Below, one piece after another: positions 678 through 36,844 of a stretch of DNA of 64,000 nucleotides. The translations under genes were made by a program, and so were the position numbers. Numbering within the stretch: the stretch's first letter is position 1; each line of letters begins with the position of its first letter. The stretch lies in the IMG/VR virus record IMGVR_UViG_3300017963_000263. One strand, given 5' to 3'. The notes beneath the pieces were generated by a model. It worked only from the letters and a program-made list of their open reading frames with translations. It was not told the origin of the DNA and did not search any database. This DNA comes from an uncultured virus (IMG/VR IMGVR_UViG_3300017963_000263) (lineage: Duplodnaviria > Heunggongvirae > Uroviricota > Caudoviricetes).

Positions 678-819
678 GTAGATCACGGCCAGTGGCCGCT
701 GAGCCGGCCTAGCGAATCAGCGGTTTTCTTATGCTCACCATGCTTTTCTCCTGCGTTTCTGGGGGTTTGCGGGCAATTTTTGGGGCGTTCGACCCTAACA
801 TGATCACCACGCCCCCACC

Positions 820-847
820 TTGAATTCGGCGATGGCCGTGATAGAAT
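820..847 (+). promoter_or_regulatory. sigma70-like promoter TTGAAT-16-TAGAAT with extended -10 TG
   Basis: Second copy of the CTTGAATTC...CGTGATAGAATG architecture. Confidence 0.6.
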
Positions 848-852
848 GGGGC

Positions 853-918
853 GGTGTTACCACCCCGGAGATAGTATCTCCGGGCCGACGCCCTGCGCGA
901 ATGCGGGGCGTTTCTTTT
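853..918 (+). ncRNA. Candidate small RNA 3
   Basis: Palindrome CCCGGAGATA-G-TATCTCCGGG (864-884), then terminator ACGCCCTGC/GCGGGGCGT plus TTCTTTT (888-918). Confidence 0.4.
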
Positions 919-1020
919 GGCGGCAACTATTAGGGATTCCCCAATAGTTCGCGGCCTGAACCGAAAGGAGGAGGGAGGTGGACGAGCCCGAACTCAACCG
1001 CTAGGGGCGTTCAGGCGCGC

Positions 1021-1057
1021 AAAAAAACCCCGCCGCGCCGGGGAGGGCGGGCGGGGG
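1021..1057 (-). terminator. Intrinsic terminator closing the leftward small-gene array
   Basis: Minus strand CCCCGCC...GGCGGGG followed by T7. Confidence 0.65.
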
Positions 1058-1209
1058 TGGGGAGAAGGTCAGTTCTGTCCCTGGTATTCTTTGCCGCACA
1101 CGATCTCGTCGCCAGCCGTGGCAACCTCGTCGCCAAGCTCGGAGTCGATCAGGCACAACGCTCCACCTCTCCATCGCTGGACGAGCGCCGTGACTTCATG
1201 TTCCACGAA

Positions 1210-1482
1210 CTAGATATCGACACCAGCAGCGGCCACTTTTTCCTTGGCGGCACGAACGGAAATCTGCCCGTAGCGCCAGCACCGATACAACCACCGAATC
1301 CGTGCCGTGCTCCCGTTGATCGACAGTGATGGGCGAGGACTCATATGTAGTCCCCGTCGAAAATCAGGATACAATTGCCAGAGCGAATGCATCACGCCGT
1401 GCCATTCGTCGTGTTCGCGGTGGGCACGGGTGACCACACGATGGATGCGGTGCCAGTGTCGCCAGCGTTCGCGGGGTGTCAT
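1210..1482 (-). CDS. Hypothetical protein (array cassette)
   Basis: ATG sits exactly at the end of a boundary repeat with GAGGAG RBS. Confidence 0.7.
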   Translation of the reverse strand: MTPRERWRHWHRIHRVVTRAHREHDEWHGVMHSLWQLYPDFRRGLHMSPRPSLSINGSTARIRWLYRCWRYGQISVRAAKEKVAAAGVDI

Positions 1483-1522
1483 CGTCTCATCTCCTCGTGT
1501 TAGGGTAGTGCCCCGGGGGGCG

Positions 1523-1765
1523 TTAGTCCTCGGCCACCGGGTTTTTTGTCAGTGTGCCGCTCCCGGCAAATATCTCCGCACTGTATCCGTTGTCTGCTGC
1601 CCATTGCAGCACGCGCTGTCGCATTTCCTCGTAGGCATCGTCGGCGGCAGACGAGCCAATCTGTTGCACCCGCCCATCGGGATGGATGAGTTTGGCCCGC
1701 AGGAACCCGTGCCCGTACATTAGTGATACGCTGATCTGGTCGTCTCGCATTTCAGTCGTCTTCAT
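1523..1765 (-). CDS. Hypothetical protein (array cassette, MKTTEMRDD...)
   Basis: Start and TAA stop both supplied by flanking repeats. Confidence 0.75.
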   Translation of the reverse strand: MKTTEMRDDQISVSLMYGHGFLRAKLIHPDGRVQQIGSSAADDAYEEMRQRVLQWAADNGYSAEIFAGSGTLTKNPVAED

Positions 1766-1836
1766 CGTCTCGTCTCCTCGTTTGGGTTGAGCCCCGGGGG
1801 GCGTTAGTCGGTGGGGACACGCAGCCCGGGTAGGTG

Positions 1837-2022
1837 TCAGCAACCAATGATGATCTCCCTGGCAGCGTAGGGATCGTCGTTCTCCACGATCGCTACGCCC
1901 GTGGCCTGCCCGCCAACGACGGCATGGGCTGCTGCAATCGCTTCGTCGCGGGTTGCGATTGTGGTTTCCACTACGCCCCAGTGATCCGTGTTCGCTACGC
2001 GCTTCTCGATTCGATAGCTCAT
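1837..2022 (-). CDS. Hypothetical protein (array cassette)
   Basis: Repeat-supplied RBS and ATG. Confidence 0.7.
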   Translation of the reverse strand: MSYRIEKRVANTDHWGVVETTIATRDEAIAAAHAVVGGQATGVAIVENDDPYAAREIIIGC

Positions 2023-2061
2023 CGTTCTCCCTCCTCGTTAGGGTTGGTGCCCCGGGGGGCG

Positions 2062-2247
2062 TTAGTCGTCGAACAGGTCGTCCTCGTCGGCCGTCGCCTC
2101 GGAGCCTTCGAGCAAGTCTTCTATTTCGTCGAGGTCCTTGTGCGTCTTGGCCTTCTTCAGGTCATCCCACAGCGTCAGTTCGCTTTCCGGCTCCAGGCGA
2201 ATGTATTCCCGCTCCATAATGCGTTGTCGGCGGGTCTCAATGTCCAT
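2062..2247 (-). CDS. Acidic hypothetical protein (array cassette)
   Basis: Repeat-bounded; acidic C-terminus EDDLFDD. Confidence 0.75.
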   Translation of the reverse strand: MDIETRRQRIMEREYIRLEPESELTLWDDLKKAKTHKDLDEIEDLLEGSEATADEDDLFDD

Positions 2248-2286
2248 CGTCTCACTCCTCGTGTTAGGGTAGTGCCCCGGGGGGCG

Positions 2287-2472
2287 TTAGTCGTCGCTCG
2301 CTGAGCCGGAAGTCCAGTTCAGGTAGGGGTTGAACGCACCGCAGCCGATGACCCGTCCGGTGATATCGGTCGCCAAGCTACCGGGGCAATCGCCCGCGTC
2401 CTCGTCCTGGTACGCCTCGCTGTCCTCGGGGGGCAGTCGTCCGCCGCAGCATCCGCATGTTTGCTTAGCCAT
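2287..2472 (-). CDS. Cys-containing hypothetical protein (array cassette)
   Basis: Repeat-bounded; CGCC...C...C. Confidence 0.7.
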   Translation of the reverse strand: MAKQTCGCCGGRLPPEDSEAYQDEDAGDCPGSLATDITGRVIGCGAFNPYLNWTSGSASDD

Positions 2473-2511
2473 CGTCTCGTCTCCCGTGTTGGTGTTGGAA
2501 TAGTCTCGCGG

Positions 2512-2772
2512 TCAACCCATGTCGACCACTGAGCCGTCGGGCTCGTAGCCCAGCGTCGGCTTCGTCTCCACAAGCAGCAAGTCCTCCACGTCGTCGTCTG
2601 TGAGTACCGCGTACCCCTCGCTTTCGTCCACGTACAGCCACCACTGGCCGCCGAGGTGCCGCACTTGGGCGTCGTACACGTTGACGCCTTGCTCGTCCAC
2701 GACGTAACGAACGGGGGTGGTTGCACTGTCCCACACGTCTGAGAGTTCGCCGATTCGTGCTGCGTCTGTCAT
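2512..2772 (-). CDS. Acidic hypothetical protein (array cassette)
   Basis: Repeat-supplied start. Confidence 0.7.
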   Translation of the reverse strand: MTDAARIGELSDVWDSATTPVRYVVDEQGVNVYDAQVRHLGGQWWLYVDESEGYAVLTDDDVEDLLLVETKPTLGYEPDGSVVDMG

Positions 2773-2843
2773 CGTCTCGTCCTCCGAAAAAGGGTTGGGT
2801 TGTCCAAGCGCCTTTCGGCATCAGAGGGGTGCCCCGGGGGGCG

Positions 2844-3041
2844 TTAGGCGTCTTCGCTTGCGGCCTGCTCAAGGGCCTTGGCTTGGCAGTCGTCACACTC
2901 TAGCCCGTATCCGTCGCCGCCAATTGGCACCTTGGCCCAGTAGAAAGTTGGGTCGCCGTGTTTCAGGTCGTCGGGAGTCGGTTGCCGCCTGCATGTCACA
3001 CACAGAACCGGGCTCCCTCCGAGGTAATGCCGTTGCGTCAT
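2844..3041 (-). CDS. Small zinc-finger-like protein (array cassette, MTQRHYLGG...)
   Basis: Repeat-bounded; CVTC...CDDC. Confidence 0.7.
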   Translation of the reverse strand: MTQRHYLGGSPVLCVTCRRQPTPDDLKHGDPTFYWAKVPIGGDGYGLECDDCQAKALEQAASEDA

Positions 3042-3079
3042 CGTCTCATCCTCGTGTTGGTGTTGTGCCTCGGGGGGCG

Positions 3080-3286
3080 TTAGTCTTGCAGGTTCGCAGG
3101 CAGATCCGCGTAGTCGATACGCGAGCCCGCCTGCCCCTGGACGTCGTAGTCGGCGTTGGGCGTGGCCCAGTAGTCCTCGCTGGTGCCCACTTCGGCATCC
3201 TCCCAATCCAGGGCCCCGCGAGCATCCTCCGGCACGCGGGTGAACATACCATTCGTCGTGAAATATGCGGTTCGTTCAGGGTCCAT
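3080..3286 (-). CDS. Acidic hypothetical protein (array cassette, MDPERTAYF...)
   Basis: Repeat-bounded. Confidence 0.7.
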   Translation of the reverse strand: MDPERTAYFTTNGMFTRVPEDARGALDWEDAEVGTSEDYWATPNADYDVQGQAGSRIDYADLPANLQD

Positions 3287-3326
3287 CGTTCTCCCTCCTC
3301 GTGTTGGTGGTTGGTGAAAGCAGAGG

Positions 3327-3566
3327 TTACATCCACGCCTCAAGCACCACGAGGCGCTTGCCGTCATCGGTTCGTTGCGGCCCGCGAATCCCGCAATCCT
3401 GGGTAACGCACGTACAGCCACTCAACCCGCACAGCTTGCGGCGAGCCCGTTTGGACTGCGACTCACTCAGCCGGATCGTGCATTCCCCGGCGATGTGCGC
3501 CAGGCCATCGCACCGTACTACGGCCTCGGTGCCGTGGAAATTGTTTCGGAGGGTGTAGTTTCTCAT
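3327..3566 (-). CDS. Hypothetical protein, copy A of a duplicated cassette
   Basis: 79 aa; differs at 6 residues from 4026-4265. Confidence 0.8.
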   Translation of the reverse strand: MRNYTLRNNFHGTEAVVRCDGLAHIAGECTIRLSESQSKRARRKLCGLSGCTCVTQDCGIRGPQRTDDGKRLVVLEAWM

Positions 3567-3606
3567 CGTCTCGTCTCCCGTGTTGGTGGGTGGTGCCCCG
3601 GGGGCG

Positions 3607-3990
3607 TTAGGGCCGTCGCAAAATCGTGAAGCACATTTCGCACGGCGTCATGCGGTCGCCGTCGTTGGTTTCTCCCGCGCCGGTGCATACCGCGACGACG
3701 CGAAATGACGGCAGTACCACGACGTGTAGCTGCTCGTCGACGTATGGAGGCGCGACTATTTCATCGCCCGGGTTGCCCAGATCGTACGATGCGACCATGT
3801 ATTCGCGGGCTATCCATTCGTCTACCGTGTCTCGCGGCGCGTCCAGGTGGTGCGCATTCTCGGCCGTGATCCGATCCGGGCGGCCGTTGCGCATTGCGGG
3901 ATGAATCCGTGCCAGCCGTTCATCGGTCACGCTAGCCGACAATGTGAGCCCCTTTGTTGCGGCTCTCTTTTCCAGTTCGCTGCGGTTCAT
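3607..3990 (-). CDS. Hypothetical protein (array cassette, MNRSELEK...)
   Basis: Repeat-bounded. Confidence 0.7.
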   Translation of the reverse strand: MNRSELEKRAATKGLTLSASVTDERLARIHPAMRNGRPDRITAENAHHLDAPRDTVDEWIAREYMVASYDLGNPGDEIVAPPYVDEQLHVVVLPSFRVVAVCTGAGETNDGDRMTPCEMCFTILRRP

Positions 3991-4025
3991 GTCTCGTCTC
4001 CCGTGTTGGTGGTTGGTGAAGCAGA

Positions 4026-4265
4026 TTACATCCACGCCTCAAGCACCACGAGGCGCTTGCCGTCGTCGGTTCGTTGTGGCCCGCGAATCCCGCAATCCTG
4101 GCAATCGCACGTACAGCCACTCAACCCGCACAGCTTGCGGCGAACCCGTTTCGATTGCGACTCACTCAGCCGGATCGTGCACTCCCCGTAGATGTGCGAC
4201 ATGCCATCGCACCGTACTACGGCCTCGGTGCCGTGGAAATTGTTTCGGAGGGTGTAGTTTCTCAT
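4026..4265 (-). CDS. Hypothetical protein, copy B of a duplicated cassette
   Basis: Near-identical to 3327-3566. Confidence 0.8.
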   Translation of the reverse strand: MRNYTLRNNFHGTEAVVRCDGMSHIYGECTIRLSESQSKRVRRKLCGLSGCTCDCQDCGIRGPQRTDDGKRLVVLEAWM

Positions 4266-4296
4266 CGTCTCGTCTCCCGTGTGTGGTGTGGAATAG

Positions 4297-4542
4297 TCAG
4301 AACGTGGTCGTACCATCTTCGTTCAGCCATGTCCGGGCGCGACCAACGGGATAGACTTTGTCGGGTTGCACATGGGCCAGTACGTCCCACTCGTCGGTCA
4401 GCAGATCGGGGTCATCGTGAGTCAGCACCTCGACGGTGCCCTCTTCGTTCCGTGCCACGTATCGCCCACCATATCGTCCAGGTGATTGTCGCGCGGTCTT
4501 CATGGCTGCCCTGCACGCCTGCGTTACTGCATGGAAATCCAT
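4297..4542 (-). CDS. Hypothetical protein (array cassette, MDFHAVTQ...)
   Basis: Repeat-bounded. Confidence 0.7.
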   Translation of the reverse strand: MDFHAVTQACRAAMKTARQSPGRYGGRYVARNEEGTVEVLTHDDPDLLTDEWDVLAHVQPDKVYPVGRARTWLNEDGTTTF

Positions 4543-4582
4543 CGTCTCGTCTCCTCGTGTTGGTGTTGTGGCCCGAGGGCCG

Positions 4583-5149
4583 TTAGGCGGTCCCAAATCC
4601 CGCCTGTTGTAGTTCGTTCGCTTCCGCTGCCTGGGCAGCAGTCCACTCCTCGCCGCTCGGGATGCTCCCCTGGTTGACGACCCGCAGCACGCGGGCCAGA
4701 TAGCGCACCTCGCCACGCTGGACCGTGTGCCACAGTTCGCCGTTGTCGAGCACCACGCGAAACCGCCCATTGGCTCCATGTTTGCGGATGAGCTTGTTGA
4801 GTAGTTTCCGCTTGGCGATGTGTTCCCGTAGGTCTGCTGCCAAGTCCTCCGCAGCAACCCTGTCTTCGCACTCGTAGCAAGATGCGTCTGAATCATGGCC
4901 CGGGTCGGAGCACTCGTGCCAGCCAGGCAGCACGTCGGCCGGGTTGTAGTAGTCCGTGGCGTTGGCGTACTTGCTGGTATGGTGCCACTCGCACGGTTCC
5001 ATCACGGCCTTGATGTCGGCCGTGGTGATGCCGGGAAAATCGACTTTCAGATACTTTGCCAGCCGCGATACGGGGAGCTTGCCCTCGTCCTCGGCTCGTT
5101 CGGCTCGCTTGGAGCGAGACCAGCCGGAATAGCCGCTGTTCATGCTCAT
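4583..5149 (-). CDS. Phage hypothetical protein (GYSGWSRS...EWHHTSKY motif)
   Basis: Repeat-bounded; motif recalled from small phage proteins of unknown function. Confidence 0.75.
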   Translation of the reverse strand: MSMNSGYSGWSRSKRAERAEDEGKLPVSRLAKYLKVDFPGITTADIKAVMEPCEWHHTSKYANATDYYNPADVLPGWHECSDPGHDSDASCYECEDRVAAEDLAADLREHIAKRKLLNKLIRKHGANGRFRVVLDNGELWHTVQRGEVRYLARVLRVVNQGSIPSGEEWTAAQAAEANELQQAGFGTA

Positions 5150-5189
5150 CGTCTCCCTCCTCGTGTTGGTGTTGGTGCCCCGGGGGGCG

Positions 5190-5420
5190 TTAGTCGGTGA
5201 ACCTGTCTGGCGAGTGCGTCTCGCAGGGCGAGCACATTCGCCGCCCCTCGTGGGTCGCGCCAAGCACACCCGTGGCGTGCCGCCAGCGGAGGACGCACCC
5301 GCAGGAGGCGCGTTTTTGGCGGGTGTACCAGCCCCCGCCGTCGTAGTCCGCGCCCCCGATGCGCTCGACGGACACGCCCTCGAATTGTGCCGGCTCTTCA
5401 CGGCGCACTTCAAATTCCAT
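5190..5420 (-). CDS. Hypothetical protein (array cassette)
   Basis: Repeat-bounded; CGC...CSPC. Confidence 0.7.
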   Translation of the reverse strand: MEFEVRREEPAQFEGVSVERIGGADYDGGGWYTRQKRASCGCVLRWRHATGVLGATHEGRRMCSPCETHSPDRFTD

Positions 5421-5479
5421 GTCTCATCCTCCTCGTGTTGGTGTGGTGCCCCGGGGGGCGTTAGGGGGGTGGGCAGTCC

Positions 5480-5794
5480 CTACATTTCCAGGCAGTCCAG
5501 GACGTACTCAACACGATATTCGTCCATGTCCGCCGGCCAGTCGAGCGGAGCGTCCATGCACTCGGCCTGGCGGGCTGCGGCTAGTGGCGTTATGCAGGCC
5601 CGTGCGGCCGGATCGAATCCCCACTCGTCTGGTGTGCCCCACCAGTTGGCGTAGTAGTTGTCGTCGCGCGAAACTCGCATCGGCCGCGCTCGGCCGTGGC
5701 TGTCTCGGTTTGGCCATGCGTCTAGCATCAGCGTGTGTAGACGCCGGGTGTGATCTGCTCGTCGTTGCTCGGCTGTAGTGAGTAGTTCGCTCAT
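5480..5794 (-). CDS. Hypothetical protein (array cassette)
   Basis: Repeat-supplied start. Confidence 0.7.
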   Translation of the reverse strand: MSELLTTAEQRRADHTRRLHTLMLDAWPNRDSHGRARPMRVSRDDNYYANWWGTPDEWGFDPAARACITPLAAARQAECMDAPLDWPADMDEYRVEYVLDCLEM

Positions 5795-5854
5795 CGTCTC
5801 ACTCCTCGTGTGTGGTGTCAGGAATAGTCAGTCTGCCCCGCCTCCGCTCCAGTG

Positions 5855-6100
5855 TCAAGCGAACAGAGCCCGCACCTCATCACGCACCCGCTGGTCGATC
5901 GTGCGGGGCTCGTGCAAGGGCGTCATGCCATCGAATGCCGCGGGGGGCCAGTGATATACGTGCCCCTCATCCCAGCGGCCGTAGTTGTTCTCCCTGGCCA
6001 CAACTGCCAGAGGTTCGGGGCCGTGGCGGGTTATCGCCACGACTCGATAGGTGTTGCCGGCTCGGCTGCGGTAGCGGTCGCCGGGGTAGATAGTGGGCAT
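5855..6100 (-). CDS. Small SH3-like/DUF1653-like protein
   Basis: PGDRYRSRAGNTYRVVAI pattern. Confidence 0.55.
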   Translation of the reverse strand: MPTIYPGDRYRSRAGNTYRVVAITRHGPEPLAVVARENNYGRWDEGHVYHWPPAAFDGMTPLHEPRTIDQRVRDEVRALFA

Positions 6101-6142
6101 GGTTTTGTCTCCCGTAGGTTAGAGTGGTTGGTGGTTCCGAGG

Positions 6143-6412
6143 TTAGGCCAAAGATCGGCGGATTTCGGTCAACAGCCAACGGGGCTCGTGGTCAATTCGC
6201 ACGCCGCCGCGGTAGCAGAAACAGTCGCACAAGTGCCGCCCTGCGCGGCTGTCGAGAAAGTCAACCGCCTGGCTCTCACTTAGGCCGTACTTGCCGCAGA
6301 GTACGTCGTGGGCGTAGTTGTGGTATATCTCGGTGGCCTCAGCCTCGGTGCAACCTGCCTGCACCAGCGTGCCGAAAAAGCCCCACGCCTCGTTGTTGGT
6401 CTTGATAGTCAT
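6143..6412 (-). CDS. Mobile-element hypothetical protein (NEAWGFFGT...FLDSRAGRH)
   Basis: RBS GGGAGA; motif recalled from phage/plasmid hypotheticals. Confidence 0.7.
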   Translation of the reverse strand: MTIKTNNEAWGFFGTLVQAGCTEAEATEIYHNYAHDVLCGKYGLSESQAVDFLDSRAGRHLCDCFCYRGGVRIDHEPRWLLTEIRRSLA

Positions 6413-6494
6413 GGTTGTGTCTCCCGTGTCAGGGTTAAGGGTATCGTCTCAAGCGCCCCGTGCCGGAATTGCACCGGCACGCTACGCGGGGCGG

Positions 6495-6785
6495 TTAGTT
6501 GTCCTGTATCTCCACGCCGTTCTCGTAGGCTCGCCACTCGTCGTTTCCCAGCCTCGGAATGCCCTTGAGTTCTGTTCCCGCAGGCCAGCACCCGCCCCCG
6601 TAGGGGCTGGCAACGTCTTCCGTCAGGCGAACCCGCACGCTCTTGCCGTAGACTTTCGTGATAACGCCAGGGCCGTCGACCCGGAACCCGAGGCCATAGC
6701 CCCAGTACACCCGAACGGCCACGCCCTCGGCCAGTTGTGCGTTTTGTGCTGCCCAGCGTCGATAGGTTTCGGTGAAAGTTGCCAT
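6495..6785 (-). CDS. Hypothetical protein
   Basis: AAGGAGAG RBS; first gene of the array after the HNH gene. Confidence 0.7.
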   Translation of the reverse strand: MATFTETYRRWAAQNAQLAEGVAVRVYWGYGLGFRVDGPGVITKVYGKSVRVRLTEDVASPYGGGCWPAGTELKGIPRLGNDEWRAYENGVEIQDN

Positions 6786-6816
6786 GTCGTCTCTCCTTAT
6801 TACTTAGTGGTGGTGT

Positions 6817-7194
6817 TCAGTTGCCGCGGGGATCTTCAGTCTCACCGTTAATGATCGCCTTGGCCAGCTTGCGGTAGCGGCCGATTGCCCGGCGGGTGTT
6901 GCGTCGAATGTGGGCCCGCGTCTCGGGGCCCGCGAACCGATTCAGCGGCGTGTCTTTCCGTGAGCAGTTGCAGTGCCGGCAGCTCGTGACCAAGTTGTCG
7001 GGGGTGTTCTCGCCGCCGTCGCTGTCGGGGGTGACGTGGTCGAGGGTGATGTCGGTGGGGTGGGCTCCGTGCAGATCACGGAGGCAGTACAGGCAGGTGA
7101 AGCCGTCTCGGAGGTAGATGGCCAGGCGGAGGTCTTTGCGGCAGACGACGCCTTTGTAGGAACCGTTCGAGCGGCGGTTTCGTTTGGTTGTCAT
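6817..7194 (-). CDS. HNH endonuclease
   Basis: RDGFTCLYC...TLDHVTP..GGENTPDNLVTSCRHCNCSRK; alternative start at 7230. Confidence 0.9.
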   Translation of the reverse strand: MTTKRNRRSNGSYKGVVCRKDLRLAIYLRDGFTCLYCLRDLHGAHPTDITLDHVTPDSDGGENTPDNLVTSCRHCNCSRKDTPLNRFAGPETRAHIRRNTRRAIGRYRKLAKAIINGETEDPRGN

Positions 7195-7239
7195 GGCTTG
7201 GCTCGTTTTGTTTTGGGCTGTGTTTCTCATGTCACTTAC

Positions 7240-7268
7240 ATAATATACAGGCCCCGCCGTGGCGTCAA
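7240..7268 (-). promoter_or_regulatory. Promoter TTGACG-17-TATTAT driving the HNH gene and small-gene array
   Basis: Hexamers at 7263-7268 and 7240-7245. Confidence 0.65.
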
Positions 7269-7493
7269 GGTGGCCCCATGTATTTAGACGTGGATTCCCC
7301 AAAGTTTTTCCCCCCGAGGGGCCGCAAGTGCAGAAAACCCTTGCAAAATAAGAGGTTACGTCAAAACGGCCATTTTTCGGCCCCCAAAATAACTGGATAT
7401 TTTCCCGATATTGTCATGGGGCCGACTTACTGGACACTTTGGAAATAGGAAATTTTGGGGCAAATGCCCCTATTTTGCCACCCTTGGGGGGGG

Positions 7494-7667
7494 CTACGAC
7501 CGTCCGCCAAGCGCCCGAACGACCAGGGTGGCCGACAGGCTGCGACGATCTTCCGCCGCCAGCCGCTTGAGGGTGGCGTATTCGGCCTCGGTCATGCGGA
7601 CGTTCACCGTCTTGGGATAGATTGCCCCAGGCGGTCGGCCCGGACTCCGCTTTTTCTTCGCGCTCAT
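7494..7667 (-). CDS. Ribbon-helix-helix (CopG/Arc-like) DNA-binding protein, 57 aa, absent from the ORF track
   Basis: Translated by hand: MSAKKKRSPGRPPGAIYPKTVNVRMTEAEYATLKRLAAEDRRSLSATLVVRALGGRS; AAGGAG RBS; own promoter. Confidence 0.8.
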   Translation of the reverse strand: MSAKKKRSPGRPPGAIYPKTVNVRMTEAEYATLKRLAAEDRRSLSATLVVRALGGRS

Positions 7668-7690: not shown

Positions 7691-7718
7691 ATTATAGCGT
7701 TATCGTGGCCCCAGTCAA
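7691..7718 (-). promoter_or_regulatory. Promoter TTGACT-16-TATAAT for the RHH gene
   Basis: Hexamers at 7713-7718 and 7691-7696. Confidence 0.7.
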
Positions 7719-7904
7719 TAGCCCCTGGCAACCTCGCCCCTCAGACGCCCCCAGCGGCCCGTATACGCCCGTTCAGTATCGAAGGGTAATCAGGCACGGG
7801 AGCGGGGAACGGCTAGGAGGCGGCTACGGGGCTTGCCTGGCGGGGCGTGGGGGGGTAGGATGGGAGTGGATTCACTGTGCCCCAAGAATAAGGGAGCCTC
7901 TACC

Positions 7905-8996
7905 ATGTCAGGCAAGTCTCGCGGATTCACCCTCGTGGAACTCATGGTCACGGTCGGCATTATCGCCATGCTGGCGGCCGCAATGCTCGGAGCTGTCCAC
8001 GTCTCGCGTGAGGCAGCCCGGAAACAAAAGACGCAGGCGACGATTCTCAAGATCCATGACGTCGTGATGGCGCAGTATGATTCCTATCGTACGCGCCGCA
8101 TGGAAGTGTTCTCCGACAGCGCCGAGCCGAAGGAACTTGCCCCGCTACGGCTTGTCGCCGTCCGCGACATCATCAGAATGGAAATGCCCGAGCGATGGGC
8201 CGACGTCGTGATGAACCCAGTCGCCGAAACGTCACCCGGCGGCCCTCCGATCCCCCGCCCCGCTCGTTCACGTACCTACCTCCGCCGATACGAGATGGCC
8301 CGGGCGCGCATGGATGCCGCCTATGGCCTCGGCCTCGATCGCGGTGAAGGACAAGAGCGACTGAACCGTTACGGCTCGGCCGAGTGTCTTTACATGATCG
8401 TCGGGAGGAATCCAATACTGCACACGGATGGTGGCGAGCTTGCCAGCGGCGGGGGAGAGTTGGCCCGATTCCACGACAACGAAGTGGGCGATGCCGATGG
8501 CGACGGGTTGTATGAATTTCACGACGGCTGGGGCAACCCGATCATGTTCCTGCGCTGGGCTCCCGGGCTCGTCGGCTCCCCGCTTCAGAAACAGGTGTTT
8601 TTCGATGCCGACGACGACAAGCTATACGAGCGGAACGCAGCAGCCGCGGAGAAGGCCGCCGCGGTCGACCACGACCTCTTCGACTCCCGCAACGTCCAGG
8701 GCAGCGCTTACCGACTCGTCCCGTACATCTACTCCGCTGGGCCTGACGGGATCTATGACGTGAATTTCGAGCCTGGCTATCAATTCACCCAGCAGCGCGA
8801 CCCGTACTCATTCGGCCCTGTCGGCAGTCCGGAACCCAACGAAGCGGGGATTCCGGTGAACAGTTGGAACGTGTCGGTCACGGCAATGGACCCGCCGGAA
8901 GATCCTGCGGACTTGTTGCACGGCCCGAAGCGGACGCCGGACTCGTTGGACAACTTCGACAACATCGACAATCACACGCTGCTGGGAGCGCAATAG
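7905..8996 (+). CDS. Prepilin-type N-terminal cleavage/methylation domain protein (type IV pilin/pseudopilin-like)
   Basis: MSGKSRG|FTLVELMVTVGIIAMLAA; D.WGNPI and IYSAGPDG motifs; only long plus-strand gene. Confidence 0.9.
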   Translation: MSGKSRGFTLVELMVTVGIIAMLAAAMLGAVHVSREAARKQKTQATILKIHDVVMAQYDSYRTRRMEVFSDSAEPKELAPLRLVAVRDIIRMEMPERWADVVMNPVAETSPGGPPIPRPARSRTYLRRYEMARARMDAAYGLGLDRGEGQERLNRYGSAECLYMIVGRNPILHTDGGELASGGGELARFHDNEVGDADGDGLYEFHDGWGNPIMFLRWAPGLVGSPLQKQVFFDADDDKLYERNAAAAEKAAAVDHDLFDSRNVQGSAYRLVPYIYSAGPDGIYDVNFEPGYQFTQQRDPYSFGPVGSPEPNEAGIPVNSWNVSVTAMDPPEDPADLLHGPKRTPDSLDNFDNIDNHTLLGAQ

Positions 8997-9062: not shown

Positions 9063-9776
9063 TCAGACTGGCCACGGGGCGCTGGGCGTGTGCCAGACCC
9101 CCTGAACCACCACGCTCCTATACACGTCATGGGACGGGGCAAACGCCTCTACCGGTGGCCGCTCGTGGTGCAGGTGGCAGCCGCGGGCCGAACCGAAAAA
9201 CGGCTCCAGCCCGCGACCCTTGGTCAGACAGTCTACGAACCACACGTCCTCCCTGCCTGGTGCAATAAACCGCTCGTCATTCCCCCCCACTGCGTAGAGG
9301 TCGCTCCGGTACACGGCACCCAAGAAGAACAACGGCCGCCGCCCCTTGGGGCCGCATAATTCAACAAGCCCCGGGTTCCGTGGGTGTCCGCACCCCTTGG
9401 GGCGCAACATCTCGTCCGTATTGAGCACGGTCGCCAATACGAAACGGCCGGGGGCCATTTCCTCGACAAGCTGTTCTATCGCCTCGCCCCGGTGAACGAC
9501 ATCGTCGCTCTGACAGATAATGATCTCCCCACGCGCGCGCCGATACGCGGCATTGCGAGCGGGGGCGGGGTTGCGATATTCGTTATCCCACCGCCGCCTA
9601 ATGTAATGCACCCACTCATAGCCCCTGCACACCTCAGCAGTGGCCACTGTTGAAGGCCCGTCGTCAACTACAATCACCTCAAATGCAAAAGGGGGCTGCT
9701 GAATATAGATAGAGTCGAGCACCCGCCGCAAGGGCTCGGGCTTGTCGTGTGTGGCGATACAAATGCTAGCCTTCAT
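9063..9776 (-). CDS. Glycosyltransferase family 2
   Basis: SICIATHD...EVIVVDDG...ARNAAY...QSDD...GGNDERF...ED. Confidence 0.9.
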   Translation of the reverse strand: MKASICIATHDKPEPLRRVLDSIYIQQPPFAFEVIVVDDGPSTVATAEVCRGYEWVHYIRRRWDNEYRNPAPARNAAYRRARGEIIICQSDDVVHRGEAIEQLVEEMAPGRFVLATVLNTDEMLRPKGCGHPRNPGLVELCGPKGRRPLFFLGAVYRSDLYAVGGNDERFIAPGREDVWFVDCLTKGRGLEPFFGSARGCHLHHERPPVEAFAPSHDVYRSVVVQGVWHTPSAPWPV

Positions 9777-10462
9777 TCGCACACCCCCATTTCGCGCAGC
9801 GCACCATGCACCTCGTCCCAATTGGCCACGATCTCCGAATATGGCCGCGTCTCCTGCTTGTGCGTTGCCGGCACCGGGTCGTTCCATCGCAGCCCCAGGT
9901 GCTCGTAAATCCCGCGCACGGTATCTTCCCACCGTTCAACCAGGTCTTCATAGCGGACGGCAAAGTACGTTGACAACAATGCCCGAACCTGCTGCTGGGC
10001 TGATGTCAGCCGAGTTACATGGTAGCGAAACGCTGCCATGTCAAACAGCAGAGGCTCCGGGTGCGTTTGCCTCGGGCGCTCCGAGGCCCACGCCGCATAG
10101 TCGCCGCGCGTTAGGTCGCGGTTGGCAATGGAGACAGACAGGTATTGCCCTAGCACATCGTCTCGCGTCAAGACTATCACCCGGTTGTGAATGCGGCGCA
10201 GCTTCGTCCAGTGTTGGTGCCAGGCGGCGGGGTCCGGCGGGCAACGGCGGAACACGGCCTCGTGAAAATGCTCCATCGCGCCCACGGTCGCGTCGGGGTC
10301 AAGCCGCTTGTAATATTCCGCCAACTCGGTGGGCAGCGCACCCGGCCGCGTGGCGTACCGGCCCTGGTAATCGTGCCACGCCGCAACGTCTGGGTGCGCG
10401 CGAAAGATTGACCGCAGCATGTGCGTACCCGACCGGCCGGAACTGACCAACAGAAAGCGCAT
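9773..10462 (-). CDS. Sulfotransferase (Stf0-like)
   Basis: PAPS loop SSGRSGTHML, LTRDD...YLS, YEDL. Confidence 0.8.
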   Translation of the reverse strand: MRFLLVSSGRSGTHMLRSIFRAHPDVAAWHDYQGRYATRPGALPTELAEYYKRLDPDATVGAMEHFHEAVFRRCPPDPAAWHQHWTKLRRIHNRVIVLTRDDVLGQYLSVSIANRDLTRGDYAAWASERPRQTHPEPLLFDMAAFRYHVTRLTSAQQQVRALLSTYFAVRYEDLVERWEDTVRGIYEHLGLRWNDPVPATHKQETRPYSEIVANWDEVHGALREMGVCE

Positions 10463-10465
10463 CGC

Positions 10466-11392
10466 TCATCCCCAGTTCTTGCAGTGATCCAGGCACATCT
10501 TGCATGTACCCGCCTTTGTTTGCGCGCGGAACTCTTGGTATTTCGGGCTGTTCCACACCTCTTCCCACGGTTGCTCCAGCACGTTGCCAAAGCCATACGT
10601 CGGCGGAATGAAGCAACAGGGCTGGACCGTGCCGTCCATATTGATTACGAGTTGCTGTGAGGGGCTTTGGCATAACGGCATTCGCTGCCTTACCACCTCC
10701 CGCCGCTCGTCCGTCGTCAAGAAGCCTCGGACGACCTTTTTCTCCTTGCCCATGATTGCGTTCGCTTCCTCGATGGCCTGGAGGTTCTCGGGCGTTTCGT
10801 GCAGCACAAGGTCCTCGTCATACTGGCCGTTCTCCATCCCAGTCTGCACGGGGTCGCATAGGGGAAGGAAGCGCATTTCATCGGCCCCTACCTCCAGAGC
10901 GAAGCGGGCTAACGCAGGAGCCTCCAGGACGTTCTTTTGCGTGACGACTGCGGCGATAACAGCACGGTAGTCGTGCGGCCTGGCCATCATAGCTCGCGTG
11001 TTCGCCACGACGGTGGGCCAATGTCCTTTGGTGCCGGTCAGGGCGTCATACGTGTCCGGCACAAGGGAGTGCAGGGAAATCACGATCTCGCCCAGCCGAT
11101 AGCGCCGCACCAACTCAGGCCGCAACCTGTGCCCATTGGTCGAGAAGCAAATGCGGCCCGGCTTGGTGTCAAAATACTCCAGCAGTTGCTCGAAGAACGG
11201 CAGTAGTGTTACCTCGCCGCACCCGCCGATGTTCAGGTCTTTGGCGCTGCTCCACAAGGCGTCCAGCTTGGTAGTGATATCCTCATAGGACCAGTGCCAC
11301 ATATCTTTAACGTGCAGACGGTTAGAGCAGAACCGGCAGCGGTAGTGGCACACTGAAGTGAAGACGGCTGTAACATTGCTTGGGGGCTTCAC
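10466..11392 (-). CDS. Radical SAM/SPASM protein
   Basis: CHYRCRFC; C-terminal DGTVQPCC...FGNV...CKMC. Confidence 0.9.
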   Translation of the reverse strand: MKPPSNVTAVFTSVCHYRCRFCSNRLHVKDMWHWSYEDITTKLDALWSSAKDLNIGGCGEVTLLPFFEQLLEYFDTKPGRICFSTNGHRLRPELVRRYRLGEIVISLHSLVPDTYDALTGTKGHWPTVVANTRAMMARPHDYRAVIAAVVTQKNVLEAPALARFALEVGADEMRFLPLCDPVQTGMENGQYDEDLVLHETPENLQAIEEANAIMGKEKKVVRGFLTTDERREVVRQRMPLCQSPSQQLVINMDGTVQPCCFIPPTYGFGNVLEQPWEEVWNSPKYQEFRAQTKAGTCKMCLDHCKNWG

Positions 11393-11401
11393 GCAAATAC
11401 C

Positions 11402-12655
11402 CTACTTGTATATGGGGGTGTCTAGTGACGGGTCAATGGGCCTGCGAATTACCGAGCGGCGAAAGTAGTCTTCGGATGAGCCGATCAGGCTCATGTCAAT
11501 TAGGTCGCGCTCCGTACAGTAGTCGTAAAGTCGTGTGCCCGGCAGCGGGAAAAACCAGGTCATCTGGCTATGATTCGGCCGAAGCCGGTTGTTTAGCCGC
11601 CGGGTCGCAACAGTCAACCGGTTATCAAACGAGACCGGAAACCCTCGCATGTTGTAGGTGGTAATCCAGATATCGGGAATGGTCCGCAGCAACCGAAAGG
11701 CGGCTTTGAGTTGCGTGTTACTGTCGCGCCGATTTAGCCAGCGCCTCCGGAACTCCTCGTTGCCGCACTCTACACCGCTCGCCACGTACGTACAGCCAGT
11801 GCGACGGAGCAGGTCAACCAAATCGTCATCCACCGTATCGGCCCGAAACATGCAGCCGTAGGGTATGCCGACTTCTTTGTGTACGGCCGTGAACAGCTCG
11901 GCAACGAATCGTTTGTCGAAGGTAATCATCTCATCGCCGAAATACGCCAACTCCAGCGGATACGTGTCACGCAAGTGCTTGAGTTCGGCAATTACCGTAT
12001 CGACACAATGGGTGCGCAGCAATCCCTTGCGATACAAACGGAGAAAACTGCTGTTGCAGCAGTAGGTACAACTATATGGACACCCGCGCGTAGCGAAGAC
12101 GTAACAGAACCCGGGGAACAGATTGCCGCGCTCCCGAATGACCGAGCCCGGATTCCACGCCTCATAATCAAATCGCGGCAACGAGTCCAGGGGTGTTGGC
12201 GGTCGGAGCGGGTTGGTGACTACGCGGCGGCCCACCCGATAAACGAGATTGCGGATGTTTGTGAGGTTCCTGCCTCGCTCAATGGAATCTAGCACCTCGA
12301 CTACGAAGCCCTCGCCCTCGCCGACACAGAGATAGTCAATCGCGGCACAACTGCGCAACAGGTCACCGCCGCACACGGTTGCGTGCGCGCCCCCCAGGAT
12401 GATCGGTACATCGGGCAAGAGCGCCTTGATCGTGCGGGCCGTCGCCGCGGCCCGCTCCCAGTATAGACTCGTGGCCGACAGGAGCACAGCGCCGTACTCG
12501 CCGCCAAGTATCTGGTTGATGGCCCCTTCGTTGCCGATCCATACGGTATCCAGCAACTCCACGTCATGCCCAGCATCCCTGGCACACTGGAGCACATACC
12601 CCACGCCACGACTGATGAGCTTGTCGTTGTTGAAGTAGATCAGCGCTGCTCTCAT
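11402..12655 (-). CDS. Cobalamin-binding radical SAM protein (class B methyltransferase-like)
   Basis: ILGGAHAT, VGEGE, TRGCPYSCTYC, PLPGT. Confidence 0.9.
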   Translation of the reverse strand: MRAALIYFNNDKLISRGVGYVLQCARDAGHDVELLDTVWIGNEGAINQILGGEYGAVLLSATSLYWERAAATARTIKALLPDVPIILGGAHATVCGGDLLRSCAAIDYLCVGEGEGFVVEVLDSIERGRNLTNIRNLVYRVGRRVVTNPLRPPTPLDSLPRFDYEAWNPGSVIRERGNLFPGFCYVFATRGCPYSCTYCCNSSFLRLYRKGLLRTHCVDTVIAELKHLRDTYPLELAYFGDEMITFDKRFVAELFTAVHKEVGIPYGCMFRADTVDDDLVDLLRRTGCTYVASGVECGNEEFRRRWLNRRDSNTQLKAAFRLLRTIPDIWITTYNMRGFPVSFDNRLTVATRRLNNRLRPNHSQMTWFFPLPGTRLYDYCTERDLIDMSLIGSSEDYFRRSVIRRPIDPSLDTPIYK

Positions 12656-14175
12656 TCTTCCAGTTGCCTCCAGACGTTGTTGTTACAGAGGCATGCCCCG
12701 CAAATCGGCAGGTCATCAGCCCGTTTGTGAAACCGGGCATTGAAATCCTCATCAAACCCACAATGCAACGAGCCTGCGTCCGCTCCGATGTGCCGGTGGT
12801 TTGCGAACGCCATGCAGCAATACCACACGTTGCCATACAGATACATGAGCTGTCGTACAACGCGCCCGCTGCTGTCACGCCGTTGCGAACAGTCCGCCGG
12901 CAGGCAACCTACCTGCACCTCCGTAGGCGGCACACGGTGCGGCAACTCGTTCCAAGTAACCGCCACCCCGAGCCGCCGGTGTGTGTCGGCGTCCTCTGCC
13001 GTGCATTGGTTAGCCGAGACGACGTACCGTAATCCATAGCGGTTCGCTGTTTCTGCGACGTTGGCCGCATCGCGTCCGTTCGTGACAAACGTCACGGCGT
13101 CCGTAATGCCCGACTCTTGTAGTAGGCCGATACTTTCCGCGAACAACGGCCAGAGCGTAGGCTCGCCGCCGGATAATTCAATGGTCGCAAAATGAATCCC
13201 ACGCGATCGACAAGACTCTATGAACTGTTCTAGCTCGTCCCGGCCCATTTCGTAGTCAGGCCGTTCGCTTCTCGTGACAGCCTGGTTACAGTGCGGGCAC
13301 GCCAAGTTGCAGCGACTCGTAACCCACAAGACCAAGTGCAGCGGCGCACCGTCCCACGGTGCGTGTGAGTCGATTAGCTCACCCCACGGCCGGTTGACGT
13401 TGCGCACGAGTTGCCCGGCGCGTTCCTTGCGCAAACGAATGTTGTACGCAAACCCGGGATCGGCCTCTAGCTCTTTGATACCCCTCCGCCCATGGTACAA
13501 ATGGATTGCCTCTGCGCCCGGCGGTGCGTACACGTAGCGGCACCCGATAGCCTGTAGCCGGTCGAGTAGATCGCAGTCCTCCGAAGCGCACCCGATGAAG
13601 TCCTCATCGTATCCACCCACGTACAACAAGTGTTCACGCCGCACGGCCAGGAAGAACGGTACATCAGGGTTCGCCGGATAGAAACCGGGCGGGCGGGGGC
13701 CCTTGCGTATGCGGTCCACTACTTCGCCTAGGTGATGGGCGACCGTGGCCTTGGCCTTACCCAAGAGCGTAACCAGCCGGCCGTCGTCGTCGTACACGTC
13801 GTGCAGCGTGCTCATGGCCATGCGGTCGTTTTCGGCGGCTGCAATCACTGGCCGCAGGGTCTCGCCGATATGGAAAATGTCCGAGTTGGTTAGGACGACG
13901 ATTTCCCCCGTCGCCTGCTGAATCCCTACGTTGGCAGCAAACCCCATACACCGCCAGTATGCTTGTGTGCGCGTGCCGGTGTGAATGTGACGCACGTTCA
14001 AGCCGGCCACAACCGGCGAGGTGCGGCACAGCGACTCCGTTTCTTCGCGGTGCCCGTCATTGGCCACAATCACTTCGTGATCCATTTGCCCCAGCCCTTG
14101 ACGTTGGAGGCTGCCAAGCGCGTAGCGCAGGAAGGTGTCGCGGTTGCAGGTCGTCATCACAATGGAGAACTTCAT
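12652..14175 (-). CDS. GT2 glycosyltransferase fused to a radical SAM domain
   Basis: N-half VANDG...TNSD...GGYDEDF..SED; C-half CNLACPHC...SGGEPTL. Confidence 0.85.
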   Translation of the reverse strand: MKFSIVMTTCNRDTFLRYALGSLQRQGLGQMDHEVIVANDGHREETESLCRTSPVVAGLNVRHIHTGTRTQAYWRCMGFAANVGIQQATGEIVVLTNSDIFHIGETLRPVIAAAENDRMAMSTLHDVYDDDGRLVTLLGKAKATVAHHLGEVVDRIRKGPRPPGFYPANPDVPFFLAVRREHLLYVGGYDEDFIGCASEDCDLLDRLQAIGCRYVYAPPGAEAIHLYHGRRGIKELEADPGFAYNIRLRKERAGQLVRNVNRPWGELIDSHAPWDGAPLHLVLWVTSRCNLACPHCNQAVTRSERPDYEMGRDELEQFIESCRSRGIHFATIELSGGEPTLWPLFAESIGLLQESGITDAVTFVTNGRDAANVAETANRYGLRYVVSANQCTAEDADTHRRLGVAVTWNELPHRVPPTEVQVGCLPADCSQRRDSSGRVVRQLMYLYGNVWYCCMAFANHRHIGADAGSLHCGFDEDFNARFHKRADDLPICGACLCNNNVWRQLEE

Positions 14176-14927
14176 TGTGCTTTACATCTCCCGTATTCTT
14201 CCTGCCACCTCGTGACCCATCGCCATCGTGGATCGTTGGCCTTCAGTCGCGGGCTCCACGGGTTCGCATTGCCGCCCGTAAAGTGAATGACCCGTTTTGC
14301 ATGGTCCGGGACTCCCGGCATGTTCACGTCGTAGCTCTCGTTGTACTCGACAGGCAGCACGCCGGTCTCGTAGCGGTGCAACTGGAAGTAGTGGTTGAGG
14401 TAGCCTTGATCGCCCCCGTCGTATGCTAGGCACACTCCATCGGCAATGTCGCGCAGCAGGTCATCGTGAAACGTGGACGGCAGGTGCCGGAAGTCGAATA
14501 CCATTGTGCCCGCGTTGAACAACCGGCTACTATCTAGGCCGATCGTCCGGATAATCTTGTCGTAATAGACGACGCTGGCCGTGTCCCGACAAGCGTAGAA
14601 AGGCAATCGCCCGATAGAGCCGCTCCACAGATAGGAGCAATCGCCCACGCAGAGCATGTCTGCATCCATCAAGATCAGCCGGTCGACCCCAAGGGTCAGT
14701 GCTTGGAATTTCTTTGCCACCTCGGAGAAATGCGTCTCGCTTACCCGTACCCACGAATAGTCAACAGACAGCGGATACGCTTGGGCAAACGTGCAGGTAT
14801 CCATCCCCACGGCGTAACAGTCGACGCTATCCGGCAGGTTGCCGTAGCGCCGCAACGTGTGGAACATCACCTCAGCCCCAACGGCATAGTCACCTGTTGC
14901 AAGGATGGCAAGTGCGGTTTTCATCAC
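14172..14927 (-). CDS. Glycosyltransferase family 8
   Basis: MDADML, FNAG, GGDQGYLN, IHFTG. Confidence 0.85.
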   Translation of the reverse strand: MMKTALAILATGDYAVGAEVMFHTLRRYGNLPDSVDCYAVGMDTCTFAQAYPLSVDYSWVRVSETHFSEVAKKFQALTLGVDRLILMDADMLCVGDCSYLWSGSIGRLPFYACRDTASVVYYDKIIRTIGLDSSRLFNAGTMVFDFRHLPSTFHDDLLRDIADGVCLAYDGGDQGYLNHYFQLHRYETGVLPVEYNESYDVNMPGVPDHAKRVIHFTGGNANPWSPRLKANDPRWRWVTRWQEEYGRCKAQ

Positions 14928-36241: not shown

Positions 36242-36844
36242 TTAGGTAGGCTCCCATTTTCTCGCCTTCACGGCGTCTATCACGGCCTGTGGGGCTATGT
36301 GGTCTAGGTAGCGTGCCGTCGTAGCGATCGACGAATGCCCGAGCTGCCGGCTGATGACCCCGATATCCACGCCCTCCGCCCTCATCTCCGCTGCCCCCGT
36401 GTGACGTAGCCCGTGGGCATGTACGCGCTTGTCTATGCCCGCCTTGCGCGCGAGACGGGGAAAGAGCTGCCTGATGTAGGCTGGCGTCATGGGCCGCCTC
36501 TGGAGCGTACAGAATAGGGGCTGTCGGCCGTTGGCCCCACACTTGCTTCGGGCCATTTGCCACAGATCCACAAGCGCCCAGCCCGCCTCGTCCATGGCCA
36601 CGGTACGGGCTTTGTCGCCCTTGCCGTGGAGCACGCGAATCGTGCCGGCCTTTCTATCCAGGTCCTTCGGTCTCAATGCCAGTGCCTCGCTAATGCGCAA
36701 CTGTGCCCGGTAGAGCACCGCTATCAGGGCTCGGTTCCGTATGCCCGTAGGGGCACGCTTGGAACATGCTTTCAGGAGCCGGTTCACCTCGTCTGCCGTG
36801 AGTACCTCTGGCGGCAACTTCCGCCCATTCTGTATCTCGCACAT
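36242..36844 (-). CDS. Tyrosine recombinase, catalytic domain only (resolvase/Xer-like)
   Basis: LRISE (R), GKGDKAR (K), HGLRH, LGHSS...TARY; 200 aa. Confidence 0.95.
   Translation of the reverse strand: MCEIQNGRKLPPEVLTADEVNRLLKACSKRAPTGIRNRALIAVLYRAQLRISEALALRPKDLDRKAGTIRVLHGKGDKARTVAMDEAGWALVDLWQMARSKCGANGRQPLFCTLQRRPMTPAYIRQLFPRLARKAGIDKRVHAHGLRHTGAAEMRAEGVDIGVISRQLGHSSIATTARYLDHIAPQAVIDAVKARKWEPT

Follow-up and report, generated by a model that had tools for sequence, protein, structure and literature searches.

Repeated intergenic elements that accompany translation starts have been described in several groups of tailed phages, and three of them stand close to the element treated here, a linker of about 40-50 bases in total that joins the short genes of an array on the minus strand of the IMG/VR virus record IMGVR_UViG_3300017963_000263, an uncultured member of the Caudoviricetes (the whole stretch of 64,000 nucleotides that was analysed is called the window, and the array coordinates and strands refer to it). 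In cluster K mycobacteriophages, the SAS/ESAS elements have been described as an asymmetric motif with a Shine-Dalgarno (SD) core, located a few bases before the mostly ATG starts, in one orientation and only at non-structural genes, which belong to differing families; an upstream inverted repeat accompanies about half of the sites, its consensus varying from one phage group to another, and the function of these elements was given as still unverified as of 2025 (PMC3203893, PMC12699233). According to Pope et al., the ESAS copies of any one genome are alike, and those of different genomes differ (PMC3203893). The PeSLs of T4-type phages, as reported by Arbiol et al. in 2010, are composed of a stop codon, a G/C stem-loop and then the SD and start of an ORFan; they cluster in a plastic region, have been shown to mediate modular shuffling and mini-circles, and each holds a sigma-70 promoter and a stem-loop that terminates transcription (PMC2839356; see also Comeau et al. 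2014, PMC4122927). In the Gordonia phages of cluster DJ, intergenic 50-bp repeats upstream of ATG starts were reported, with a -10 promoter box and a leaderless start in the motif and with 5 copies in the phage Vardy (PMC9671010, PMC9753669).

The locus in the window is composed of an HNH endonuclease gene, g0, followed by 18 short open reading frames (ORFs), g1-g18, in one operon on the minus strand (7194-1210). Like the SAS/ESAS, by analogy and not by homology, its linker has an SD-containing motif before ATG, one orientation, non-structural genes as its context and a palindrome (at 10/18 junctions); unlike them, the units are contiguous in one operon, the stop of the preceding gene and an A/C-rich spacer are part of them, the inverted repeat has only 12 nt, and the likely host phylum of the array phage is a different one. 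The 13-bp SAS consensus, as it is given in PMC3203893, had four matches in the window at up to 2 mismatches, none of them at the array starts. Like the PeSLs as published, the linkers run from the upstream stop to the SD and start, before genes mostly without a named family (17/18); unlike them, they have neither a promoter nor a T-run after the stem, and the shuffling, demonstrated for the PeSLs, is inferred for the array from its own sequence. PeSL-type promoter cassettes were accordingly rejected as a description of the array, inside which no promoter-like site is present. With the DJ repeats, in their published description, the locus shares the multiple intergenic copies, a region of ~7 kb located 3' of the tail genes and small genes of unknown function. 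Thus, SAS/ESAS (same logic, different sequence), PeSLs (same stop-to-start composite) and the DJ repeats appear to be the closest known analogues, and the literature search made for this linker found no such array described in planctomycete or other environmental phages. The reading that we hold to be, on balance, probable is that of a standardised intercistronic expression linker, which spread by copying and served as short homology for recombination.

The genes of the operon, with g1-g18 spanning 1210..6785 and encoding 61-188 aa according to the ORF table, are the following:
6817..7194, minus strand, g0, the first gene of the operon, HNH endonuclease of 125 aa (PF01844, E 1.4e-11)
6785-6495, minus strand, g1
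6412-6143, minus strand, g2
6100-5855, minus strand, g3
5794-5480, minus strand, g4
5420-5190, minus strand, g5
5149-4583, minus strand, g6
4542-4297, minus strand, g7
4265-4026, minus strand, g8
3990-3607, minus strand, g9
3566-3327, minus strand, g10
3286-3080, minus strand, g11
3041-2844, minus strand, g12
2772-2512, minus strand, g13
2472-2287, minus strand, g14
2247-2062, minus strand, g15
2022-1837, minus strand, g16
1765-1523, minus strand, g17
1482-1210, minus strand, g18

All 19 ORFs are open with an ATG start, and the G+C content of their third codon positions (GC3) is 0.62-0.83, above GC1 and GC2 in 19/19, so that they are taken as real genes; the opposite strand of this 60% G+C DNA also holds long spurious ORFs. 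The cassette-like array of about 18 genes proposed in the first-pass annotation was borne out, as 18 promoterless short ORFs behind an upstream promoter.

In each complete linker, the last codon and stop of the upstream gene are followed by the GC palindrome, an A/C-rich and G-poor spacer of 15-20 nt, GGAG, a fixed purine-rich 8-nt spacer and ATG. The 5' element TAACGCCCCCCGGGGC (TAAC-GCCCCCCGGGGC) has 11 matches in the 64 kb at up to 3 mismatches, of which 10, with 7 exact, lie at 1510-5463 on the minus strand and the remaining one, a weak match, lies elsewhere; the shuffles gave 1.47 +/- 1.35, and 0/100 reached 11. The patterns of the 3' element likewise occur much more often than expected by chance and are concentrated in the array. 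The class A 5' element (TAAC with the GC palindrome) was found at 10/18 junctions and a second type, class B, containing GACTATTCC, at three (g3>4, g7>8 and g13>14), while the 3' start motif ACG(A)GGAG..GAGA.CG-ATG, searched as a regular expression, was present at 14/18 and the exact GAGACGATG at 11/18; the junctions g1>2 and g2>3 have a common variant, ACGGGAGACAnAACCATG. The statement that nearly every junction carries the repeat therefore stands for its 3' half only (14/18), and the complete repeat is restricted to about half of the junctions. The intergenic length is 38-42 nt at 10/18 junctions, and all 18 downstream genes start with ATG, which GGAG precedes by 8 nt in most cases. Fourteen junctions were aligned to give a 49-mer consensus, and the sequence model built from them gave 15 sites in the window, all within 1480-5832 and none in the other 58 kb:
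5792..5832, minus strand, g3>g4, class B (GACTATTCC) with start motif
5421..5465, minus strand, g4>g5, class A full linker, its TAA out of frame with g4
5147..5194, minus strand, g5>g6, class A full linker (model score 49.9 bits)
4540..4587, minus strand, g6>g7, class A full linker, palindrome variant GGCCCTCGGGCC with one compensatory pair change
4263..4301, minus strand, g7>g8, class B with start motif
3988..4031, minus strand, g8>g9, A/C-rich spacer and start motif, no palindrome
3564..3611, minus strand, g9>g10, class A full linker, palindrome one C shorter
3284..3330, minus strand, g10>g11, A/C-rich spacer and start motif, no palindrome
3039..3084, minus strand, g11>g12, class A full linker, palindrome with one mismatch
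2826..2848, minus strand, g12>g13, 5' element only, then a longer hairpin, then GAGACGATG
2470..2505, minus strand, g13>g14, class B with start motif
2245..2291, minus strand, g14>g15, class A full linker
2020..2066, minus strand, g15>g16, class A full linker
1763..1808, minus strand, g16>g17, class A full linker, GAC-TAA in frame with g16 past its TGA
1480..1527, minus strand, g17>g18, class A full linker (best model score, 52.9 bits)

The 20 nt before the ribosome site contain 32% A, 45% C, 12% G and 11% T, the G of the whole array being 31%, and an A+C content of at least 0.75 at -36..-17 was found at 12/18 array starts vs 3/53 other window ORFs, the starts of the latter being picked roughly and one of them lying at the window edge without upstream sequence. 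The 3' half of the linker would act as a strong site of translation initiation in which secondary structure is avoided, and the 5' half as an insulator or an mRNA-stabilising hairpin that separates this start region from the upstream gene. Within the composite reading, the translation role of the 3' half is the firmest part, past recombination at the linkers comes second, and the RNA-hairpin role of the palindrome third. A side observation on the start motif is that 11 or more copies of GAGACG, the reverse complement of the type IIS restriction site CGTCTC, are kept before the array ATGs, which is odd for a phage; the overlap is probably a coincidence.

The evidence for copying comes from identical tracts located beside unrelated genes, namely seven 16-mers (six of which extend to the same 18-mer) and five 15-mers, and from the near-identical 40-nt linkers at the non-adjacent junctions g14>15 and g17>18. 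Identical copies of 16-49 nt cannot arise by convergence, which argues that the linkers spread by copying. The upstream letters CGACGAC-TAA are common to the ends of g14 and g15, and CACCGAC-TAA to the end of g5 and the junction after g16, so that the copied unit reaches a few bases into the upstream gene. Proteins ending in Asp through GAC-TAA, which had been pointed out from the first reading of the sequence, were indeed found, with this codon pair before the palindrome at 6/10 class A junctions and with five array proteins ending in Asp. The two TAACs noticed away from the real stop are real as well: the TAA at 1806 continues the frame of g16 and follows its TGA (1839-1837) after 10 codons, and the TAA at 5463 is in the +1 frame of g4, a frame that is open for 39 codons upstream. 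Both sites fit a linker that is kept or copied as a unit, and neither calls for a further function of TAAC, the conservation of which had been taken as more than stop-codon use. In the simplest reading, the TGA of g16 is a nonsense change, maybe recent, or is read through, and the gene once ended ...PTD-TAA like its neighbours.

The proteins of g8 and g10 are 92% identical, with the unrelated g9 between them, and their cassettes align as follows:
4002..4288, minus strand, g8 cassette, the duplicated segment from the upstream start motif to the downstream ACACG (alignment columns 138-427)
3300..3588, minus strand, g10 cassette, the second copy of the g8 segment (from the alignment)

The homology of these cassettes covers ~288 bp of DNA, with 13 differences within the 240-nt ORF; it extends from the upstream A/C spacer and start motif as far as the ACACG of the next motif, with no similarity beyond either end, and is a cassette-exact duplication with both end-points inside linkers. 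In addition, the linkers are mosaic. There are two types of start motif, GGGAGAC.. and GAGGAGT.., with several positions that differ between them. Class A is joined with GGGAGAC at g9>10 and with GAGGAGT at g14>15, and class B with GGGAGAC at g7>8 and g13>14 and with GAGGAGT at g3>4; the presence of all four combinations of the 5' and 3' halves argues for recombination inside the linker, since repeated multi-base convergence would otherwise be needed. The internal evidence from the linker-bounded duplication and the four combinations of halves thus supports the earlier proposal of recombination at the repeats.

The same evidence bears on an explanation by expression only, according to which the linker is maintained by purifying selection on a translation or mRNA function, with no part for recombination in gene turnover. 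The start motif is common to unrelated phages, a weaker GGAGCGA form of it precedes 6/53 other genes of this phage, and the array is identical in the two runs that carry it, as this explanation would have it; however, the seven exact 16-mers and the near-identical linkers of g14>15 and g17>18 include positions without obvious constraint, the g8/g10 duplication ends in linkers, and all four half combinations occur, so that expression as the whole explanation seems unlikely.

Recombination of another kind was suggested by the likening of the array to an integron in the first-pass annotation, which as a mechanism would imply a site-specific recombinase that excises and inserts cassettes at the boundary repeat. 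The attC sites of integrons extend from an inverse core RYYYAAC to a core GTTRRRY and form a folded imperfect inverted repeat of 57-141 nt, and many of them include a stop codon. Like integron arrays, the array has promoterless genes of one orientation behind a common upstream promoter and a repeat that starts at or near the stop codon, and the phage encodes a 200-aa integrase-like ORF (36242-36844). However, this ORF, the only integrase-like one in the 64 kb, lies ~29 kb off, flanked by terS and terL; the first gene of the array encodes the HNH endonuclease and no recombinase of the IntI type; GTTRRRY was found at 0/18 and RYYYAAC at 4/18 junctions; the palindrome has 12 nt; and, unlike attC, the array repeat supplies the ribosome site and the start codon of the next gene. 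The integron mechanism was therefore not borne out and is considered very improbable.

In the composite reading of an expression linker used for recombination, the array would be a polycistronic operon of accessory genes read from the promoter at 7268, possibly also from the site at 7718 and possibly under a ribbon-helix-helix (RHH)-like protein. The predicted control elements, with promoter-like sites called by a scan against the sigma-70 consensus only, are the following:
7240..7268, minus strand, array promoter TTGACG-17-TATTAT, 10 of 12 consensus positions
7691..7718, minus strand, upstream promoter-like site TTGACT-16-TATAAT, 11 of 12, preceding the RHH-like ORF
7494..7667, minus strand, RHH-like ORF of 57 aa (NikA-like E 3.9e-4, RHH_1 E 0.087, both below the Pfam cut-offs)
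1021..1043, minus strand, intrinsic terminator with five G-C pairs (1043-1028) and then TTTTTTT, at the array end

No sigma-70-like promoter was found inside 1210-7194 on the minus strand, nor at any junction, and the bracketing of the array by the promoter at 7268-7240 and the terminator at 1043-1028 with its T-run, as first annotated, was confirmed, these being the only such minus-strand sites in 800-7600; the strong promoter-like site at 7718-7691 is a second one, in addition to that annotated before. In Rfam, no family matches the array region, and there was one sub-threshold match at the terminator. As regards the timing of expression, early or from the prophage, the operon may be a self-contained unit of the moron type that is active in the prophage, given the integrase-like ORF of the phage and the promoter and terminator that belong to the unit itself. 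The 57-aa RHH-like protein is a candidate regulator of the array promoter, given as a lead only. Between its ORF and this promoter, an AT-richer non-coding stretch of 225 bp (7269-7493) with a GGGGCAtttGCCCC hairpin was observed, and the ORF and this stretch together are probably the control region of the array.

According to the composite reading, any ORF dropped between two linkers would be expressed, and the linkers would give homology to the recombination system of the phage itself, consisting of an exonuclease (phrog_1218), a Sak4-like annealase (phrog_124), RusA (phrog_140) and NinG/Rap (phrog_5034). Sak4-like phage annealases recombine short, diverged homologies. Unequal or inter-genome homologous recombination in the linkers would duplicate, delete or swap whole genes with their expression intact, since the linker is the same everywhere, and the duplication of at least one cassette, like the reassortment of the linker halves, would have come about in this way.

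A role of the palindrome at the level of DNA was weighed in two forms. The CCCCGGGG-centred palindrome may be an operator or a cleavage site for the RHH-like or the HNH protein, and the bound protein would either regulate the transcription of the array or make breaks that stimulate recombination. The copies of the palindrome are identical within the genome and different in each related phage, a pattern that in the ESAS was taken by Pope et al. as a sign of DNA-binding proteins (PMC3203893), and both an RHH-like ORF and an HNH gene are found at the array head; as the RHH match is below the Pfam thresholds and 8/18 junctions are without the palindrome, such a role is judged improbable.

Several results weigh against the composite reading. 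The context GGAGCGA(A/G)C.. stands, by our own reading, before 6/53 other window genes, so that the likeness of start motifs across phages may reflect the translation preference of the host and not an exchange of linkers; from these sequence contexts, the array start motif looks like an extreme form of a phage-wide or host-wide start preference (the RusA gene, 58456-58977 on the minus strand, has the start context GGAGGAGACGAGCGA-ATG). The two sequencing runs, from two studies, that carry the array show 0 differences when compared as 31-mer contigs, and no alternative joints inside the array were found in these contigs, with the limits that rare variants are lost from contigs and that both runs may derive from a single data set. 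In IMG/VR and the JGI metagenomes, nothing closely related to the array came up. The window palindrome of 12 nt has a GC stem of only 4 bp and is present at 10/18 junctions; the junction RNAs fold no better than shuffles, with z about 0 to +0.7 for 9/11 window junctions; and the covariation amounts to a single compensatory pair, which was reached by 70/500 shuffles.

The exceptions in folding are the two long junctions g12>13 (z -1.8) and g1>2 (z -1.0), and, of the ten palindrome copies, that of g6>7 shows a single compensatory pair change, that of g9>10 a loop deletion and that of g11>12 a change that disrupts pairing. An RNA-hairpin role of the window palindrome is plausible, if weakly supported in this phage. 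The junctions do not look like intrinsic terminators, with a T-run after the stem at 0 junctions, and a CsrA-type site, an extended 16S rRNA pairing and lambda nut-like sites were dropped because their motifs do not fit. REP-type stabilisers and the processing of T7 early mRNA are models for a further possibility, in which cleavage of the operon mRNA within the A/C-rich spacers would leave new 3' ends protected by the hairpins, each gene obtaining its own stable mRNA. The position of the hairpin, immediately 3' of the stop codon and ahead of an unstructured tract, would suit such processing, as would the stronger hairpins, with stems of 6-11 bp, at the same place in three other phage contigs (L010, L011 and L019); the short window stem with no energy excess and the many junctions without a hairpin argue against it, and we consider it improbable.

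The repeats might also have mis-joined contigs during the assembly, so that the gene order or the array itself would be unreal, since breaks in the 31-mer contigs fall on the repeats and on the two copies g8 and g10. Every inter-repeat segment is, however, recovered at an even depth of about 7-10 with 0 differences in two runs, the exact repeats are by our reading under ~70 nt and hence shorter than typical reads, and 19/19 ORFs are intact and in phase with the linkers, which makes an artefact extremely improbable. A separate observation concerns g0: in the runs X1 and X2, contigs at 65-70x (the phage being at 8-9x) connect position 6937 with position 7112, both within the HNH gene, and have five base differences at 7072-7090; they are most likely HNH genes of other, more abundant organisms, and no variant of the phage.

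The search for relatives by DNA or by the tape-measure protein gave no relative in the phage database, and a near-identical IMG/VR contig (G001/G002) covers only 8433-39144 of the window, ending before the array. The 5' 18-mer had 1 viral match and 10 metagenome matches, all in single or unrelated contexts, which are read from these contexts as chance. The start-motif pattern gave at least 120 single matches in representative genomes of many phyla, with no two-match locus among the matches listed; in viral contigs, its matches were mostly chance, an A/C-rich upstream tract being present in only 7/118. Nevertheless, the same architecture, consisting of a stop, an ACC-rich run, a GC hairpin of its own, an ACC-rich run and ACGGGAG-NN-GAGACGATG, and placed after strong sigma-70-like promoters, was found in at least four other viral contigs:
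L011, an operon of six genes with at least four linkers of the form TGA, caccac, CCGCCCGGCC..GGCCGGGC, caccaccacga, ACGGGAGACGA(GA)CGATG
L010, two genes with the linker architecture
L019, two genes, with a 7-bp stem and a GCAA loop
L251 (identical to L253), three linkers with a CGGGGCAT box

The hairpin sequence is particular to each phage, and the spacer and start motif are nearly the same in all. The upstream proteins of L011 also end in Asp, and a pattern made for the linker of L011 matched L011 alone. In L251, the junction at 3257-3314 fits the window model from position 2 to position 49 (E 2e-4), although the locus had been picked up through a different site. The exonuclease of L019 is 52% identical to that of the window, and the window exonuclease as a single-protein query gave no match in viral contigs. 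The pair L251/L253 and the set L008/L009/L012 are identical copies and have no comparative value. On L008, a 37.7-kb viral contig, a CRISPR-like array with a 36-nt repeat, a period of ~73 nt and ~14 copies was observed at 4305-5370 (also in L009 and L012), ~640 bp upstream of a start-motif match. A wider proposal, which we put forward tentatively and hold to be possible but doubtful, is that of a recombinase-independent "plug-and-play" cassette system with a portable linker common to otherwise unrelated environmental phages; the linker would be a universal expression adaptor and a homology tract for ORFan capture, duplication and exchange via Sak4/exonuclease, and the 18-gene array its most expanded example.

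The proteins of the array are mostly acidic, with an isoelectric point below 6 in 12/18 and near 4.1 in four (g11, g13, g14 and g15), and CxxC pairs are present in several. Among g1-g18, 17/18 matched neither a Pfam family at its curated score or better nor a named PHROG, the sole family match being that of g2 to phrog_8020, of unknown function. The predicted structure of g8 (pLDDT 67) had no PDB fold match at E <= 0.001, and the Atlas search with g6 gave no usable match. In a comparison with all loci analysed, only the N-terminus of g6 was matched among the array proteins, in L002, a phage without such repeats; g8 has three homologues with 67-77% identity on short ENA contigs.

The window is a segment of a tailed phage with nearly all genes on the minus strand, according to the PHROG and Pfam scans, and the presence of the g8 protein on a 70,695-bp contig in the protein database indicates that it covers most of the phage. 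In the gene order, the exonuclease is followed by the Sak4-like annealase, NinG/Rap, a replication initiator, a DnaC-like loader and RusA, then by the three DNA methyltransferase genes, and then by terS, the integrase-like ORF, terL, portal, MuF-like protein, protease, capsid, tape measure protein (22428-20284) and tail genes. The features outside the array are:
63983-63000, minus strand, exonuclease, phrog_1218
45527-46612, 52152-53009 and 53213-54073, minus strand, three N6/N4 DNA methyltransferase genes
36242-36844, minus strand, integrase-like ORF of 200 aa, catalytic part only (phrog_1, E 1e-39)
9063-16054, minus strand, radical-SAM/glycosyltransferase cluster, 3' of the tail genes
7833-8996, plus strand, pseudopilin-like gene of 387 aa with an N-terminal methylation (pseudopilin) motif

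The location of the integrase-like ORF between terS (37794-37165) and terL (35696-34098) is odd, and it has its own strong promoter-like site at 36918. The cluster at 9063-16054 encodes three radical-SAM proteins (one B12-binding and two SPASM), a glycosyltransferase/radical-SAM fusion and two more glycosyltransferases, and could alter a surface glycan or a peptide. The pseudopilin-like gene is the only clear plus-strand gene of the window; the nearest Atlas clusters of its protein are planctomycete, so it serves as a host hint and may derive from the host. The host of the phage is possibly a planctomycete, a lead taken from this gene alone, and the portal protein had no match among the 401 Planctomycetota genomes searched, nor in three further entries.

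The question addressed by this locus is how phages acquire, keep and express a large load of small ORFan genes. In the literature searched, the PeSLs are the one case found in which modular shuffling was shown to be driven by regulatory repeats. The array is a compact counterpart of them that has no internal promoters, with 18 genes on one transcript, near-identical linkers and smaller versions in other phages. It makes two ideas testable, namely that any ORF inserted behind a standard start region can be expressed, and that the same 40-50 nt serve as the homology for recombination. The linker could also find use as a translation part in high-GC hosts that are hard to engineer, and, if the small acidic and Cys-rich proteins are host-takeover or counter-defence factors, a role suggested in the first-pass annotation, the array may serve as a list of candidates for them.

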